Positions 20,928 to 55,855 of a stretch of 64,000 nucleotides of DNA are shown piece after piece. The notes under the pieces were generated by a model. The model was given only the letters and a program-made list of their open reading frames with translations. It ran no database searches and was not told the origin of the DNA. The stretch lies in the NCBI RefSeq assembly GCF_055900595.2, contig NZ_CM148325.1. One strand, 5' to 3'. A program made the translations under genes and the position numbers. Positions within the stretch are counted from its first letter, which is position 1. Every line of letters begins with the position of its first letter.

Positions 20928-21125
20928 TCTGATGCGACGCTGGCCTGATAAGACGCGGGCAGCGTCGCATCAGGCATCGTGTGCAAATGTCGGATGCGGC
21001 GGGAACGCCTTATCCGACCTACAAGACCTTACATATCAACGTGTTAAAATTGTAGATGCTGATAAGACGCGCCAGCGTCGCATCGGGCATCTTGTGCAAA
21101 TGTTGGATGCGGCATAAACGCCTAT
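20928..21125. repeat. REP/BIME cluster (several REP-like palindromic units)
   Basis: Repeated units CTGATGCGACGCTGGC...GCCAGCGTCGCATCAGGC and GGATGCGGCG..AACGCCTTATCCGACCTAC between yacG and mutT; overlaps the last mutT codons. Confidence 0.75.
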
Positions 21126-21532: not shown

Positions 21533-21562
21533 ATAAAAAAGGCGCAGAATCCTGCGCCTTTT
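21533..21562 (-). terminator. intrinsic terminator in the 59-nt secA-mutT gap
   Basis: On the minus strand: GGCGCAG - loop - CTGCGCC followed by TTTTTTATAGG (plus-strand A6 at 21535-21540). Confidence 0.65.
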
Positions 21563-21579
21563 ACTTCAACTGTTAGCTT

Positions 21580-24285
21580 TTATTGCAGGCGACCGTGGCA
21601 CTGCTTGTATTTTTTACCAGAACCGCACGGACAAGGATCATTACGTCCAACTTTGCGTTCACCGGTTTGTGCCGCCAGTGCAGCTGCGGCTGCAGAGTCG
21701 TCATCCTGATGGCTAAGCTGCTGCATTTGCGCTAAACGCTCGGCTTCCATACGACGCTGTTGTTCCAGCTCCTCAACCTCTTCAGGCATACGTACCTGGA
21801 CTTTGCTCAGCGTGCTGATGACTTCATATTTCAGCGACTCCAGCATCGCTGCAAACATGGAGAACGATTCACGTTTGTATTCCTGCTTCGGATCTTTCTG
21901 TGCATAGCCACGCAGGTGGATACCTTGACGCAGATAATCCATCGCCGCCAGGTGCTCTTTCCACAGGGAGTCAAGCGTTTGCAGCATGACGCCTTTCTCG
22001 AAGTGACGCATCATCTCAGCGCCAACCACTTCTTCTTTACGCTGATACACTTCGATGGACTGCGCCAGAATACGCTCACGCAGCGTCTCTTCATGCAGTT
22101 CTGGCTCTTTGTCCAGCCACTCGGCAATCGGCAAATCGAGGTCGAAATCGTTCTTCAGACGTTCCTGCAGCCCCGGAATATCCCACATTTCTTCCAGCGA
22201 CTGCGGCGGAATGTAGGCATCGATGGTCGCTTTGAACACATCTTCACGAATGCTGTTGATGGTATCGCTCACATCGCTGACATCCAGCAGTTCATTACGC
22301 TGGGAATAAATAGCGCGACGCTGATCGTTAGCCACGTCATCATATTCCAGCAGTTGCTTACGAATATCGAAGTTACGGCTTTCAACTTTACGCTGAGCGT
22401 TGGCAATCGCTTTTGTCACCCACGGGTGCTCGATGGCTTCGCCTGGTTTCATACCCAGTTTACGCATCATGCCGGAAACACGGTCAGAAGCAAAAATACG
22501 CATCAGCGCATCTTCCATCGACAGGTAGAAACGGGAAGAACCGGCATCCCCCTGGCGCCCAGAACGACCGCGTAACTGGTTATCGATACGACGAGATTCG
22601 TGACGTTCTGTACCGATGATATGCAGACCACCTGCAGCCAGTACCGCATCGTGACGCACCTGCCAGTCGGCTTTGATTTTTTCAATTTGCTCTGCGGTCG
22701 GATTTTCCAGCGCGGCAACTTCTGCCTGCCAGCTACCACCGAGCACAATATCTGTACCACGACCCGCCATGTTAGTCGCGATAGTCACCGCCGCCGGATA
22801 ACCCGCTTGTGCAACAATCGCTGCTTCGTTAGCGTGGAATTTGGCGTTCAGAACGTTGTGTTTGATACCGGCTTTGGTCAGTTCGTTTGACACCAGCTCA
22901 GATTTTTCGATGGAGATAGTACCCACCAGCACCGGCTGGCCTTTCGCAGTACGTTCTTTGATATCTTCAATGATCGCCTGAATTTTTTCCGCTTCAGTCA
23001 TGTAGACCAGGTCCGGCAGATCTTTACGAATCATTGGACGGTTGGTCGGAACAACGACGGTATCCAGCTTATAGATGGAGCTGAATTCGAAAGCTTCGGT
23101 ATCAGCAGTACCGGTCATCCCCGCCAGTTTTTCATACAGACGGAAGTAGTTCTGGAAGGTGATCGACGCCAGCGTCTGGTTTTCGTTCTGGATCTGTACA
23201 CCTTCTTTCGCTTCCACTGCCTGATGCAGGCCATCGGACCAACGACGTCCCTGCATGGTACGACCGGTGTGTTCGTCAACGATGATAACTTCACCATCTT
23301 TAACGATGTAGTCGACGTCTCGGGTAAACAGCGCATGAGCGCGCAGCGCCGCCGTTACGTGGTGCATCAGCATGATGTTGGCCGGAGAGTACAGAGACTC
23401 CCCTTCATCCATGATGCCTTCTTTCACCAGCAGTTCTTCAATCAGCACCAGACCACGTTCGGTCAGGTTCACCTGGCGAGATTTTTCGTCCACCGAGAAG
23501 TGGCCTTCGCCCTGGAAGGTTTCGGAGTCTTCTTTTTCCTGACGGATCAGGTGCGGAATAATTTTATTCACGCGTTTATACATTTCCGAGCTGTCTTCTG
23601 CCGGGCCGGAAATGATCAGCGGTGTACGCGCTTCATCGATCAGGATGGAGTCCACTTCGTCCACCAGCGCATAGTGCAGTTTACGCTGTACACGTTCTTC
23701 AGGGCTGAACGCCATGTTATCGCGCAGGTAGTCAAAGCCGTATTCGTTGTTCGTACCGTAAGTGATGTCAGCTGCGTAAGCTTCACGCTTCGCCGGTGCT
23801 GGCATACCCGGCAGGTTGATACCGACTGTCAGGCCGAGGAATTCAAACAGCGGACGGTTGTTTTCGGCGTCACGTTGCGCCAGGTAGTCGTTGACGGTAA
23901 CAACGTGTACGCCCTTACCGGTTAATGCGTTCAGGTAAGCAGGCAGCGTTGCGGTCAGGGTTTTACCTTCACCGGTACGCATTTCCGCGATGCAGCGTTC
24001 GTTAAGAACCATACCGCCGAGTAACTGAACGTCGAAGTGACGCATACCAAAGACGCGCTTACTTGCCTCACGCACTACAGCGAAAGCTTCTGGGATCAGA
24101 TTTTCCAGCACTTCGCCTTTTTCCAGACGTGCACGAAACTCTGCAGTTTTCCCTTTAAGTTCTTCGTCGGAGAGTTTTTCCATCTCCGGTTCCATGGCAT
24201 TGATAATGTTGACGACTTTGCGCATCCGGCGCAGGGTGCGATCGTTACGACTACCGAAAACTTTAGTTAATAATTTGATTAGCAT
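21580..24285 (-). CDS. secA: preprotein translocase ATPase SecA
   Basis: ORF track 901 aa; Walker [10 protein letters not shown]-terminal zinc finger [14 protein letters not shown]. Confidence 0.95.
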
Positions 24286-26107: not shown

Positions 26108-27259
26108 TTAATCAGCTTGCTTACGCAGGAATGCTGGGATATCCAGATAATCCGGCTCTTTCGCAGTTTGCGGCGCATTGTCATTCACGACTTTAGCAAC
26201 CGGCTTCTGCTCCTGGGTCAGCGGAGCCATCCCGTGCTGCTGGTAGCGATCCATCACTGGCTGCTGAACCTGCTTATTGGTCACCAGAGTGATTTCAGGA
26301 CGTTTGTCCATACCGATACCTGTCGCAACAACAGTTACGCGCAGCTCGTCATTCATATCCGGGTCAAGAGAAGTACCGATAACGACAGTTGCGTTGTCGG
26401 ATGCAAATGCACGGATGGTGTTACCTACCGTTTCGAACTCATCCAGACGCAGGTCGAAGCCCGCCGTGATGTTAACCAGCACGCCGCGCGCGCCAGACAG
26501 ATCGATATCTTCCAGCAGCGGAGAGGAGATAGCCATTTCAGCAGCTTCTTCCGCACGGTCTTCGCCGCTCGCCACACCAGAACCCATCATTGCGTAGCCC
26601 ATTTCAGACATTACGGTACGTACGTCTGCAAAGTCCACGTTCATCAGGCCTGGACGAGTAATCAGTTCAGCGATACCTTGCACAGCACCTTTCAGTACAT
26701 CGTTCGCTGCGCCAAATGCATCCAGCAGGGAGATACCGCGGCCCAAGACTTTCAGCAGTTTGTCGTTAGGGATAGTGATCAGAGAGTCCACATGCTTGGA
26801 CAGTTCAGTGATCCCCTGCTCAGCGAATGCCATACGCTTCTTGCCTTCAAAGTTGAAAGGCTTAGTCACGACAGCAACGGTCAGGATCCCCAAATCTTTT
26901 GCCACTTCAGCGACAACTGGTGCTGCACCAGTACCGGTACCACCACCCATACCCGCAGCAATAAAGACCATGTCTGCACCTTCCAGCGCCGCACGCAGTG
27001 CATCGCGATCCTCATCAGCCGCATTACGGCCAACTTCTGGATTTGCGCCAGCTCCCAGTCCTTTGGTGATACCGCTACCGATTTGAATCGTCTGTCCAAC
27101 CGCTGTTTTACGCAGCGCTTGTGCATCGGTATTTACCGCGAAGAATTCAACACCTTCAATGCGCTCGCGCACCATGTGTTCAACAGCATTACCGCCGCCG
27201 CCGCCGACGCCGATGACTTTAATCACCGCGTCATTGGTAAGTTCCATTGGTTCAAACAT
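26108..27259 (-). CDS. ftsZ: cell division GTPase FtsZ
   Basis: ORF track 383 aa; tubulin signature GGGTGTG. Confidence 0.96.
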
Positions 27260-27319
27260 AGTTTCTCTCCGATTTGTGCCTGTCGCCTGAGGCCGTAATT
27301 ATCGTCGACCTCATAAAAA

Positions 27320-28582
27320 TTAAAACTCTTTTCGCAGCCAACTATTGAGTCGCTTGATCCACGAGCCAACTGATGCTGTAACACGTTTTTCTACTTCAGC
27401 TTCACCGTTAAGATGTGACTCTTTCCCATAGTGAAGCAATCCCACCGCCGTCGAATAATACGGCTCCTGAGCATAATCCGTTAAACCGGTAATGTTCAGC
27501 GGCGCGCCGATACGCACTTGCGTATGAAACACGCGCTGAGCACAGGCTGCAAGACCTTCGATCTGCGCTGCGCCACCAGTTAAAACAATGCCTGCCGCCA
27601 GGTGATGTTTAACCCCTTGTTGGCGAAGCTTTTCCTGCAACTGCAATATCTCTTCGTTGACCAGGTTGAGCAGCTCGGTATAGCGCGGCTCGATCACCTC
27701 TGCCAGGGTCTGACGTTGCAGACTCCGCGGTGGACGACCGCCTACGCTCGGCACTTCCACGCTCTCATCTTTTCCAACGATGGAACCCAGCGCACAACCG
27801 TGGCGAACTTTAATCGCTTCGGCGTCGCTTGGCGGCGTGCCAAAGGCGTAAGCGATATCACTGGTCACGACATTGCCAGCATAAGGAATTACCTTAGTGT
27901 GGCGCAATGCCCCACCGGTATAAACGGCGATATCCATTGTACCACCACCGATATCGACGACGCAGACACCCAGTTCACGTTCATCTTCCGTCAATACCGA
28001 ATAACTTGATGCCAGTCCGGCAAATATCAGTTGGTCAACTTTCAGCCCACAACGTTCAACCGCTTTGACGATGTTTTTCGCCATATCGTTGTGACATGTG
28101 ATCAGGTGCACTTTTGCCTGCATCCGCACGCCCGAAAGTCCTACCGGATTCTTGATCCCTTCCTGATAGTCAATCGCATACTCTTGCGGGATCACATGCA
28201 GCACACGATGCTCATCGCGCACACGCACTGATTTCGCGGTATGGACGACGTTTTCCACATCTTCTTGCGTCACTTCTTCTTCAGAAATAGGCACCATACC
28301 AATTTCATTCTGGCAGCTGATGTGCTTACCAGAAAGCGCCAGATATACCGAAGAGATCTGACAATCTGCCATCAATTCTGCCTGGTCAATGGCGCGTTGT
28401 ACGCACTTGACCACGGATTCGAGGTCGTTCACCCCGCCTTTATCCATACCACGCGACGGGCAGCTGCCCACGCCAATGATATTGACCATACCGTCGGGCA
28501 GAACTTCCCCTACTAAAGCGGCAACCTTCGCGGTACCAATCTCCAGTCCTACTACCAGTTTTCTGTCCGTCGCCTTGATCAT
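27320..28582 (-). CDS. ftsA: cell division protein FtsA (actin-like ATPase)
   Basis: ORF track 420 aa. Confidence 0.95.
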
Positions 28583-48194: not shown

Positions 48195-48852
48195 ACTTAA
48201 CTCCACTGTCACACTTAACTCCCTTTCCCTTATTGGAATGCAGAGAAATAATCCTCGAGAATATGATTTATCATGCATATAAAATAAGAAAAAGGAAAAT
48301 GAGAAAAATTAGGAAAACATAAAGATACGGGTTCTTATAAAAACAGAACCCATTGCCGAGTAAAGAGTCATTTACCGCAGCATAATAATCCATAATGTTT
48401 TTGTTGCGAAAACAATCTAATCATAACTACCGCGAATACTCAATCATCCACAAAATGGATTAAATGTGCTTTTTTAATAATTAATTTATATGTTTAATGC
48501 ATTAATTCTTAACATTAATCGAACAATAATATTCACCAAATGAATATCAAAAAATTAGCAAAACATATAATTCAATACAAATCATCAAGATAGGTTTTGT
48601 AACGCGTGCATTTTATCCCCCTTTTCCTCGTTGATTAGATGCAAAAATTTATTCTGAAATATGTCAACCGATGAAAAGCGTCGGTGGTTAAGCAGAAATT
48701 AATATCGCTTGTTTTAACCACCGCAGCACAATTAGCTAATTTGACGAATGCAGAACTCACTCTGGCGGAACGTTTTTGTTGCGTCAGGGTTGACATCCGT
48801 TTTTGTATCCAGTAACTCTAAAAGCATATCGTATTCATCTGGAGCTGATTTA

Positions 48853-48939
48853 ATGACTCACATCGTTCGCTTTATCGGTCTACTACTACTAAACGCATCT
48901 TCTTTGCGCGGTAGACGAGTGAGCGGCATTCAGCATTAA
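48853..48939 (+). CDS. leuL: leu operon leader peptide (28 aa, four consecutive Leu codons)
   Basis: GGAG SD then ATG 48853; [28 protein letters not shown]; Leu codons CUA x4 at 48880-48891. Confidence 0.88.
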
Positions 48940-48954
48940 GCCAGCACGCAGTCA

Positions 48955-48990
48955 AACAAAAAACCCGCGCCATTGCGCGGGTTTTTTTAT
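48955..48990 (+). terminator. leu attenuator (intrinsic terminator)
   Basis: A6-CCCGCGCC-loop-GCGCGGG-T7 at 48958-48988, between leuL and leuA. Confidence 0.88.
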
Positions 48991-51696: not shown

Positions 51697-53713
<2,017 letters not shown>

Positions 53714-53757
53714 TTTGTAAACCGTCCGGCACTCAATCGCCAAAAAGAAAAAAGCCA

Positions 53758-53973
53758 GCAGATAATCACTGCTGGCGTGGCGATTAACACCAATACTCAG
53801 TCACACATGATGTCCGCAAATCAGTAGTCAGAATGACTCCCCTCCCACTGCATCAGCTCTTCAAGCATGGTTAATCGTTGTGGGACGCTTAACCAACGCA
53901 ACCAGCACAACGTCGCTGTCGCGGTAAAATAGTGCTGATAAAACTGACGCATGGGGCACCTCCTTGCTTCATC
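53758..53973 (-). ncRNA. sgrS: dual-function small RNA SgrS (glucose-phosphate stress; base-pairs with ptsG mRNA)
   Basis: Minus strand begins GATGAAGCAAGGAGGTGCCCCATG..., contains the GAGUAUUGGUGUUAAUCG seed region and ends in hairpin GCCAGCAG..CUGCUGGC + U6 (plus 53758-53789); divergent from sgrR. Confidence 0.85.
53821..53952 (-). CDS. sgrT: SgrT small protein (43 aa) encoded within SgrS
   Basis: AGGAGG SD then ATG 53950-53952; MRQFYQHYFTATATLCWLRWLSVPQRLTMLEELMQWEGSHSDY; nested in larger track ORF 53821..54120. Confidence 0.8.
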   Translation of the reverse strand: MRQFYQHYFTATATLCWLRWLSVPQRLTMLEELMQWEGSHSDY

Positions 53974-54040
53974 GTTAGGAATTATTGACTTAATATAGGG
54001 AAAATAAAATTGCTGACTTTTGCGCAGGAGTTCCCCTTTT

Positions 54041-55696
54041 ATGCCATCCGCTCGTCTGCAACAACAGTTCATCCGCCTGTGGCAATGCTGCGAGGGTAAA
54101 TCGCAGGACACAACGCTCAACGAACTAGCGGAGTTATTGAGCTGCTCCCGTCGTCATATGCGCACCCTGCTCAATACCATGCAGGATCGCGGCTGGCTGA
54201 CGTGGGAAGCGGAGGTCGGGCGCGGTAAACGCTCACGTTTAACATTCCTCTATACCGGGCTGGCGCTTCAGCAACAGCGAGCAGAGGACCTGCTGGAGCA
54301 GGATCGTATCGATCAGTTGGTGCAACTGGTTGGCGACAAAGCGGCTGTGCGGCAAATGCTGGTTTCTCATCTGGGGCGTACCTTCCGCCAGGGGCGGCAC
54401 ATCCTGCGCGTTCTCTACTATCGTCCGTTGCGCAATCTGCTGCCCGGCAGTGCATTGCGCCGTTCCGAAACCCATATCGCCCGGCAAATCTTCAGTTCGC
54501 TAACGCGCATAAATGAGGAAAATGGGGAACTGGAAGCAGACATCGCCCACCACTGGCAGCAAATATCACCGCTTCACTGGCGCTTCTTTTTGCGTCCAGG
54601 AGTCCATTTTCATCATGGTCGTGAACTGGAAATGGACGACGTGATCGCCTCTTTAAAACGAATCAATACGCTGCCGCTCTATTCGCATATTGCGGACATT
54701 GTGTCGCCGACGCCCTGGACGCTGGATATCCATCTCACGCAACCGGACCGCTGGTTACCGTTACTGCTGGGGCAAGTTCCGGCGATGATCCTGCCACGAG
54801 AATGGGAAACCCTCAGTAACTTTGCCAGCCATCCCATCGGCACCGGTCCGTATGCGGTGATCCGCAACAGCACCAATCAACTGAAAATTCAGGCATTCGA
54901 TGACTTCTTCGGTTATCGCGCATTAATCGACGAAGTAAATGTCTGGGTTCTGCCAGAAATTGCCGACGAGCCAGCCGGCGGTCTGATGCTAAAAGGGCCG
55001 CAGGGCGAGGAAAAAGAGATTGAAAGTCGGCTGGAGGAAGGTTGCTACTATTTACTGTTCGACAGCCGCACCCATCGTGGGGCGAATCAGCAAGTCAGGG
55101 ACTGGGTAAGTTATGTGCTTTCTCCAACTAATCTGGTCTATTTCGCCGAGGAACAATACCAGCAACTCTGGTTTCCAGCCTACGGGCTGTTGCCGCGCTG
55201 GCATCATGCCCACCCGGCGCAGTGCGAAAAACCTGCCGGGCTGGAAAGCCTCACCCTGACCTTTTATCAGGATCATATTGAGCATCGGGTGATTGCCAGG
55301 ATCATGCAGCAGATTCTGGCAAGTCATCAGGTCACACTTGAAATTAAAGAGATCAGCTACGATCAGTGGCACGAAGGAGAGATCGAGAGCGATATCTGGC
55401 TTAACAGCGCCAACTTTACGCTGCCGCTGGATTTTTCGCTGTTCGCGCACTTGTGCGAGGTGCCGCTGCTCCAACACTGTATTCCGATCGACTGGCAAGC
55501 CGACGCCGCCCGCTGGCGCAATGGCGAAATGAATCTGGCGAACTGGTGCCAGCAACTGGTCGCCAGTAAAGCAATGGTGCCACTTATCCACCACTGGCTG
55601 ATCATTCAGGGGCAACGCAGTATGCGCGGTCTGCGTATGAACACCCTCGGCTGGTTCGATTTTAAATCCGCGTGGTTTGCACCACCGGATCCATGA
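54041..55696 (+). CDS. sgrR: transcriptional regulator SgrR (HTH + solute-binding-like domain)
   Basis: Track ORF 54020..55696 (TTG) trimmed to [15 protein letters not shown]... (551 aa) at ATG 54041. Confidence 0.92.
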
Positions 55697-55727: not shown

Positions 55728-55855
55728 CGCCGTTCTCAACGGGGTGCCACGCTGCCGCGTGCGCTGAGAAAATACCCGTCGAACCTGATCCGGATAACGC
55801 CGGCGAAGGGATTTGAGGCTCCTTCTCAAGTCCTTTGCCACTCTTCTTTGAGGTG
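55728..55855 (+). promoter_or_regulatory. TPP riboswitch (THI-box) in thiBPQ leader
   Basis: GGGGTGCC...CTGAGA...ACCCGT.GAACCTGATCCGGATAACGCCGGCGAAGGGA conserved THI-element seen at 55741-55811, directly upstream of thiB. Confidence 0.88.

Follow-up and report, generated by a model that had tools for sequence, protein, structure and literature searches.

A complete Escherichia coli sgrS locus of the setA-less CFT073/O157-type allele class, with sgrT intact

The functions of the small RNA SgrS and of the protein SgrT encoded within it have been described in Escherichia coli K-12 and Salmonella (PMC4021124). The experimentally characterised reference is that of K-12 MG1655 (b4577/b4662), a 227-nt RNA with a 43-aa SgrT, transcribed divergently from sgrR and followed by setA, with which it is co-transcribed. 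A second allele class of E. coli and its SgrS and SgrT are the subject of PMC2760817: the SgrS RNAs of CFT073 and O157:H7 share 88% identity with that of K-12 and 99% with one another (Horler & Vanderpool 2009, PMC2760817), and in O157:H7 a point mutation destroys the start codon of sgrT (PMC2760817). According to the literature, sgrT translation is inhibited by a stem-loop that sequesters the ribosome-binding site and that only 3 of 15 E. coli strains possess. The SgrS genes of Salmonella, Citrobacter, Klebsiella and other Enterobacteriaceae share with these the divergent sgrR, the seed CUGAGUAUUGGUGU and the SgrT motif F..YF.AT....WL...L.ELMQW, but differ in the length of SgrT (40 to ~60 aa), in their spacers, and in the presence of setA directly after sgrS in nearly all of them.

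The DNA analysed here (the window) is a stretch of 64,000 nucleotides from contig NZ_CM148325.1 of RefSeq assembly GCF_055900595.2. Its minus strand almost certainly carries, at 53747..53973, an E. coli sgrS gene of the setA-less CFT073/O157 type with sgrT intact (Table 1). The Rfam SgrS model (RF00534) aligns with 53973..53747 over its entire length (positions 1-232 of 232) at 228 bits (GA 37; E 5.8e-65), with no non-canonical pair flagged, and SgrS was again the top match when the whole window was scanned with Rfam. The 5' end of the RNA is the G at 53973, from which the minus strand begins GAUGAAGCAAGGAGGUGCCCCAUG; SgrS nucleotide n corresponds to window position 53974 - n. The minimum free energy (MFE) of the whole RNA is -82.3 kcal/mol (z = -2.9 relative to shuffles). 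A 501-nt query from the locus has 100% identical counterparts in complete E. coli chromosomes such as NZ_CP098223.1, and in identical loci of this kind PGAP labels sgrT (WP_001248772.1), sgrR and leuD in the same arrangement as in the window. Of 5426 complete E. coli genomes, 5399 have an SgrS of the window type or the K-12 type. The feature is real, complete and already known, its allele class having been described in 2009, and nothing in the analysis speaks against this assignment. The alternative, that the match is a chance resemblance or the decayed remnant of an sgrS gene, has practically no probability: the E-value of 5.8e-65 is attained across the full model, every functional module is intact, and identical annotated loci exist in many genomes. 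RF00534, the Pfam SgrT family PF15894 and the 100% identical RefSeq loci rule it out, with nothing in its favour.

An initial reading of this DNA from its letters (the sequence-only reading) had proposed a dual-function SgrS that contains an intact sgrT, carries a seed for pairing with ptsG and ends in an intrinsic terminator, and had named a search with the Rfam SgrS covariance model as the decisive check. That search returned the match given above, and PF15894, the divergent sgrR and the annotated loci of 100% identity bear out the assignment. The known sRNA had been recognised from raw sequence with its 5' limit placed exactly at 53973, but the opposite limit, given as 53758, is wrong by 11 nt: this position sits within the 3' arm of the terminator stem, so that 4 stem bases and the entire U-tail were left out, the true 3' limit being ~53747/53748.

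Table 1. Features of the sgrS region and other Rfam matches, in window coordinates.
Feature	Position	Strand	Basis
SgrS sRNA, 227 nt, full length	53747..53973	-	Rfam RF00534
sgrT CDS, 43 codons + stop (ATG 53952..53950, stop UGA 53823..53821)	53821..53952	-	translation, PF15894
Shine-Dalgarno AGGAGG of sgrT, SgrS nt 10-15, 6 nt 5' of AUG	53959..53964	-	read from sequence
Base-pairing (seed) block CAUCAUGUGUGACUGAGUAUUGGUGU, SgrS nt 162-187, 26 nt	53787..53812	-	identity with K-12
Small stem-loop UGGUG-UUAAU-CGCCA, between seed and terminator	53778..53792	-	MFE folds
Intrinsic terminator: hairpin 53776..53754, then U-tail	53742..53776	-	terminator scan
sgrR-sgrS divergent intergenic region, 67 nt	53974..54040	.	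homology with K-12
sgrR, sgrS transcriptional activator, divergent	54041..55696	+	NCBIfam NF010149 equivalog
TPP riboswitch upstream of thiB (sroA region in K-12)	55730..55829	+	Rfam
leuD, convergent neighbour, ends 53713	53108..53713	+	TIGR00171, 343 bits
Leucine operon leader	48839-48988	+	Rfam, above gathering score
tp2	9555-9668	+	Rfam, above gathering score
STnc40	21535-21604	-	Rfam, above gathering score
naRNA4	20942-21019	-	Rfam, above gathering score

The genomic neighbourhood is that of sgrS, thiB-sgrR-sgrS-leuD, with thiB, the TPP riboswitch and leuD flanking sgrR/sgrS. The product of sgrR matches NF010149 with 1123.8 bits (cut-off 476) as well as the Pfam families SgrR_N and SBP_bac_5. 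Unlike K-12, the window has no setA between sgrS and leuD. The divergent intergenic region agrees with that of K-12 at 65 of 67 positions, the two differences lying ~43 and ~51 nt upstream of the sgrS start (~-43 and ~-51) and the segment from ~-42 to +12 being identical. By homology with K-12 (PMC2760817), the sgrS promoter and the SgrR operator are expected to lie in this region, with a putative -10 element AATAAT at 53986..53981, and the near-identity of the two sequences suggests that the SgrR-dependent promoter is intact. A sigma-70 consensus scan found no minus-strand promoter upstream of sgrS, as expected when a promoter depends on an activator and has a poor -35 element, and this is not counted against the assignment. 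In CFT073, which differs from the window in this respect, an IS200C transposase is located directly after the U-tract of the SgrS terminator, before leuD (locus L052, 4078-4536), and in O157:H7 Sakai the gene espY2, encoding a protein similar to type III secretion effectors, is located between thiB and sgrR (locus L051, 4673-5242); these insertions indicate that the neighbourhood of sgrS is a recurrent insertion site.

Elsewhere in the window, the leucine operon leader, tp2, STnc40 and naRNA4, like the TPP riboswitch, are all expected in this region of the E. coli chromosome. One further Rfam match, to the family PssrA ("Plasmid-encoded Shigella sRNA A"; 27251-27340, minus strand, 105 bits, GA 69), spans a 60-nt gap and the overlapping ends of two minus-strand open reading frames of 420 and 383 aa. 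By synteny with K-12 this site should be the ftsA-ftsZ junction, and for a cell-division locus on the chromosome the name of the family seems misleading.

The sgrT open reading frame, its AUG at SgrS nt 22-24, encodes the 43-aa peptide MRQFYQHYFTATATLCWLRWLSVPQRLTMLEELMQWEGSHSDY, which matches PF15894 with 48.2 bits (cut-off 27; E 9.1e-13). Both the Shine-Dalgarno sequence and the 43-codon frame proposed earlier are found at the positions in Table 1. An NCBIfam search returned no SgrT match, which is not counted against the assignment because that library has no SgrT model. The sequence-only reading had suggested aligning SgrT across the Enterobacteriaceae, and in such an alignment of 41 enterobacterial SgrT open reading frames every column conserved in at least 90% of the sequences (F, YF.AT, WL, L.ELMQW) is retained in the window peptide. 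Together with PF15894 and the annotation of the RefSeq loci, this alignment settles that the peptide is SgrT. It had also held that SgrT is intact here and has decayed in some lineages, which agrees with the ATG of the window and with O157:H7 Sakai, a strain of the same allele class in which the ATG has become ATT.

Comparison with other genera began from a scan for the seed pattern in one genome per species, which gave 47 matches, 44 of them in an enterobacterial sgrR/setA/leuD neighbourhood. The other three (a Veillonella MAG, Phormidium and a Woesearchaeota MAG) have no sgrR, setA or leuD nearby and were set aside as chance matches or contaminants; by our own rough estimate, ~2 random matches would arise for 19 specified bases. 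SgrT open reading frames were located by anchoring on the MQW motif; of the 48 loci examined, 41 had an SgrT-like frame with a start codon. Among the seven others, two were cut too short, one is that of O157:H7 Sakai, and four have no recognisable open reading frame: two Siccibacter, Enterobacter sp. JUb54 and Yokenella regensburgei possess the seed and sgrR, with no frame containing the ELMQW motif upstream of the seed. The seed of Yokenella is only 135 nt from sgrR, as against ~232 nt in Escherichia. In these four, sgrT may have been lost or may have diverged strongly.

The window and K-12 alleles differ at a position that bears on the translation of sgrT. SgrS nt 13 is A in the window, giving the consensus Shine-Dalgarno sequence AGGAGG, whereas K-12 has G13 (AGGGGG) and, through it, a GGGG/CCCC hairpin. 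The first 30 nt have an MFE of -12.4 kcal/mol in K-12 and -6.7 kcal/mol in the window. With AGGAGG rather than AGGGGG, the RBS-sequestering stem-loop of K-12 is absent from the window allele, which for this reason may, as far as folding predictions go, express SgrT better than K-12. In the predicted fold of the full-length RNA the Shine-Dalgarno sequence and AUG of sgrT are largely paired (probabilities of being unpaired 0.32 and 0.06), as they are in K-12, and the accessibilities of the two sites in the full-length ensemble are similar in both alleles. G13 also occurs in E. coli strain EBJ001, and A13 occurs in other setA-positive strains (loci L053 and L054), which indicates no fixed link between G13 and the setA haplotype.

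It is unlikely that the RNA is purely a riboregulator in this strain, with sgrT conserved yet without useful translation, as has been reported for K-12. The poor translation of SgrT in K-12 (PMC2760817, PMC4021124) would fit such a role, as would the pairing of the AUG and much of the Shine-Dalgarno sequence in the full-length fold and the history of O157:H7, which belongs to the same allele class and lost the start codon yet kept the RNA. Against it stand the consensus AGGAGG of the window, the absence of the G13 that builds the K-12-specific stem-loop (with the difference in 5' folding energy given above), and an open reading frame that has stayed open, with the conserved SgrT residues all kept across genera. 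A dual-function RNA whose sgrT is presumably translated is preferred here.

The ptsG-pairing seed reported by the sequence-only reading is likewise present, as a 26-nt block identical to that of K-12. The conserved pairing block at 53812..53787 reads CATCATGTGTGACTGAGTATTGGTGT, and its core, SgrS nt 174-187 (53800..53787), is the part that pairs with the ribosome-binding site of ptsG, the seed core CUGAGUAUUGGUGU pairing with GCACCCAUACUCAG, which overlaps the Shine-Dalgarno region of ptsG. With ptsG situated outside the window, the K-12 leader was used for duplex predictions; it is a fair proxy because 5379 of 5424 E. coli genomes have a ptsG leader of at least 99% identity. A local 40-nt segment of SgrS, shuffled 1000 times for comparison, was paired with a 57-nt ptsG leader (-45 to +12). 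The observed duplex has a dG of -29.7 kcal/mol, compared with -16.1 +/- 3.5 kcal/mol for the shuffled segments, and none of the 1000 reached the observed value. A duplex calculation with full-length SgrS and a 133-nt ptsG leader was discarded: it produced long spurious duplexes that 92 of 300 shuffles equalled or surpassed. In the MFE structure most of the seed (SgrS nt 166-181) is unpaired, and nt 182-187 belong to the small stem-loop listed in Table 1, as its 5' arm. The seed is identical in both allele classes of E. coli, amid flanks that are merely 68-69% identical, which speaks directly for purifying selection on the pairing role of the seed. A natural seed-truncation variant exists in E. 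coli EBJ001 (NZ_CP086336.1), where the 5' part of the pairing block, CCTGCATCATGTGTG, has been lost through a 15-nt deletion that leaves the core CTGAGTATTGGTGT and an intact sgrT.

The present analysis covers the identity and completeness of all the sequence elements, their synteny and the complementarity of seed and ptsG; the physiology of the locus is proposed by analogy with K-12 and Salmonella (PMC4021124). Glucose-phosphate stress would lead the divergently encoded SgrR to activate transcription of the 227-nt SgrS. The single-stranded 3' seed (nt ~166-187), with Hfq, would then pair with ptsG mRNA at its ribosome-binding site, and with further known targets, which would block translation of ptsG and trigger decay of its mRNA. 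The 5' half of SgrS would be translated into the 43-aa SgrT, predicted to inhibit the PtsG glucose transporter directly. SgrR-dependent induction, Hfq dependence, silencing of ptsG, and the translation and activity of SgrT may thus be presumed for this strain from its relatives.

The 3' end of SgrS is an intrinsic terminator with a stem of 8 bp, 6 of them G-C pairs (GCCAGCAG/CUGCUGGC), a 7-nt loop and the tail UUUUUUCUUUUU; a run of six T (53753..53748) lies directly 3' of the hairpin. This terminator is the counterpart of the last helix in the Rfam SgrS consensus. The terminator and poly-U tail characteristic of SgrS, which form its predicted Hfq-binding module, are both present. The small stem-loop that precedes it has no paired positions in the Rfam consensus. 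An outer inverted repeat of 6 bp, TCGCCA/TGGCGA (53737-53742 and 53778-53783), brackets the terminator hairpin and the U/A-tract, and on the sgrS strand the upstream arm of this repeat is the 3' arm of the small stem-loop.

The sequence-only reading had further claimed that the same hairpin closes the convergent leuD transcript. This part of it is not supported: the terminator scan scores the minus strand only, and in the leuD sense the hairpin is followed by GTGGCGATTAACACC, which is no U-tract. A bidirectional terminator that ends both sgrS and leuABCD is possible all the same, if rather doubtful. The leuD stop (53713) is just 40 nt before the hairpin, with no other stable stem-loop in between; K-12 has setA and a separate hairpin close to leuD, and neither is present here; and in the leuD sense an A-tract precedes the hairpin, which the outer repeat TCGCCA/TGGCGA extends (-24.7 kcal/mol). 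The scan nevertheless calls the site on the minus strand alone, the leuD-sense tail GUGGCGAUUAACACC has no U-tract and at most 2 U in its first 9 nt, and the flank on the sRNA side is not A-rich, so that the typical symmetry of A-tract and U-tract is missing. When an upstream A-tract and a downstream U-tract were sought as the mark of a bidirectional terminator, the U-tract was found in the sgrS sense only, the leuD-sense tail being GUGGCGAUU. The hairpin may instead be a mere block to 3' exonucleases, or leuD may end by Rho, and in the leuD sense the structure could hinder RNA polymerase or shield a 3' end left by processing. Nothing relevant emerged when the literature was searched for a terminator at sgrS that works in both directions. 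A terminator acting in the sgrS direction is accordingly the reading kept here.

Among named strains, CFT073 is closest to the window: its SgrS has the same length, architecture, 3' half, seed and terminator, it likewise lacks setA, and the two RNAs differ at one base in the first ~226 nt. This is SgrS nt 62, C in the window and A in CFT073, which gives SgrT T14 in the window and K14 in CFT073; T14 also occurs in E. whittamii and Escherichia sp. MOD1-EC7003. O157:H7 Sakai also belongs to this allele class and shares the setA-less junction of sgrS and leuD, with 98-100% identity in each segment, but its sgrT begins with ATT and no SgrT is annotated, whereas the window keeps ATG (PMC2760817); with that start codon Sakai makes no SgrT. 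The K-12 allele resembles that of the window in the length of the RNA and of SgrT and in the divergent sgrR, and is identical to it at the 5' end and throughout the seed. Overall identity is ~88%, distributed as 98% over nt 1-110, 69% over nt 111-162 and 68% over nt 191-227. Of the 43 residues of SgrT, 8 differ between the two, most of them in the C-terminal tail (EGSHSDY versus DDRNSES), and the U-tail is U6-C-U5 in the window and U8 in K-12.

These differences belong to a dimorphism of the species as a whole. Window-type SgrS (at least 95% identity) occurs in 2157 E. coli genomes and K-12-type SgrS (80-90% identity) in 3242, with none between among the 5399 genomes; setA is present in 3241 genomes, and sgrS is directly adjacent to leuD in 2159. 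The 3' half of sgrS and the presence or absence of setA thus constitute one two-state haplotype across the 5,399 genomes, and ~40% of complete E. coli genomes are setA-less with the window-type allele. The classes begin to diverge at about SgrS nt 131, within the 3' end of sgrT, and with the breakpoint there the C-terminal tail of SgrT, EGSHSDY or DDRNSES, travels with the setA state. In other taxa, setA follows sgrS in Citrobacter, Salmonella arizonae and diarizonae, Klebsiella, Raoultella, Enterobacter and other genera. It is missing from E. albertii, E. whittamii and Escherichia sp. E1V33, as it is from Sakai, CFT073 and the window. In Escherichia sp. MOD1-EC7003, setA is accompanied by a K-12-type 3' half. 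The 2009 paper had drawn setA in its synteny figure and given the identity of 88% (PMC2760817), so that the dimorphism is a refinement of known facts rather than a discovery.

A speculative and distinctly improbable extension is that the 3' half of sgrS (SgrT tail, spacer, terminator loop and U-tail) and the setA state form an old Escherichia-wide haplotype, perhaps kept by selection or by repeated introgression, whose setA-less state rewires the stress response. If this were true, strains in the setA-less state would have no co-transcribed SetA efflux pump and a better exposed ribosome-binding site of sgrT. Transcription of the leu operon would be directed head-on at sgrS, held back by the sRNA terminator alone, and antisense read-through could couple leucine biosynthesis to the output of SgrS. 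As a textbook dual-function sRNA, SgrS/SgrT carries little weight as a discovery; the dimorphism is to be borne in mind when results on SgrS, SgrT translation and SetA from K-12 are extended to pathogens of the B2 and E types.
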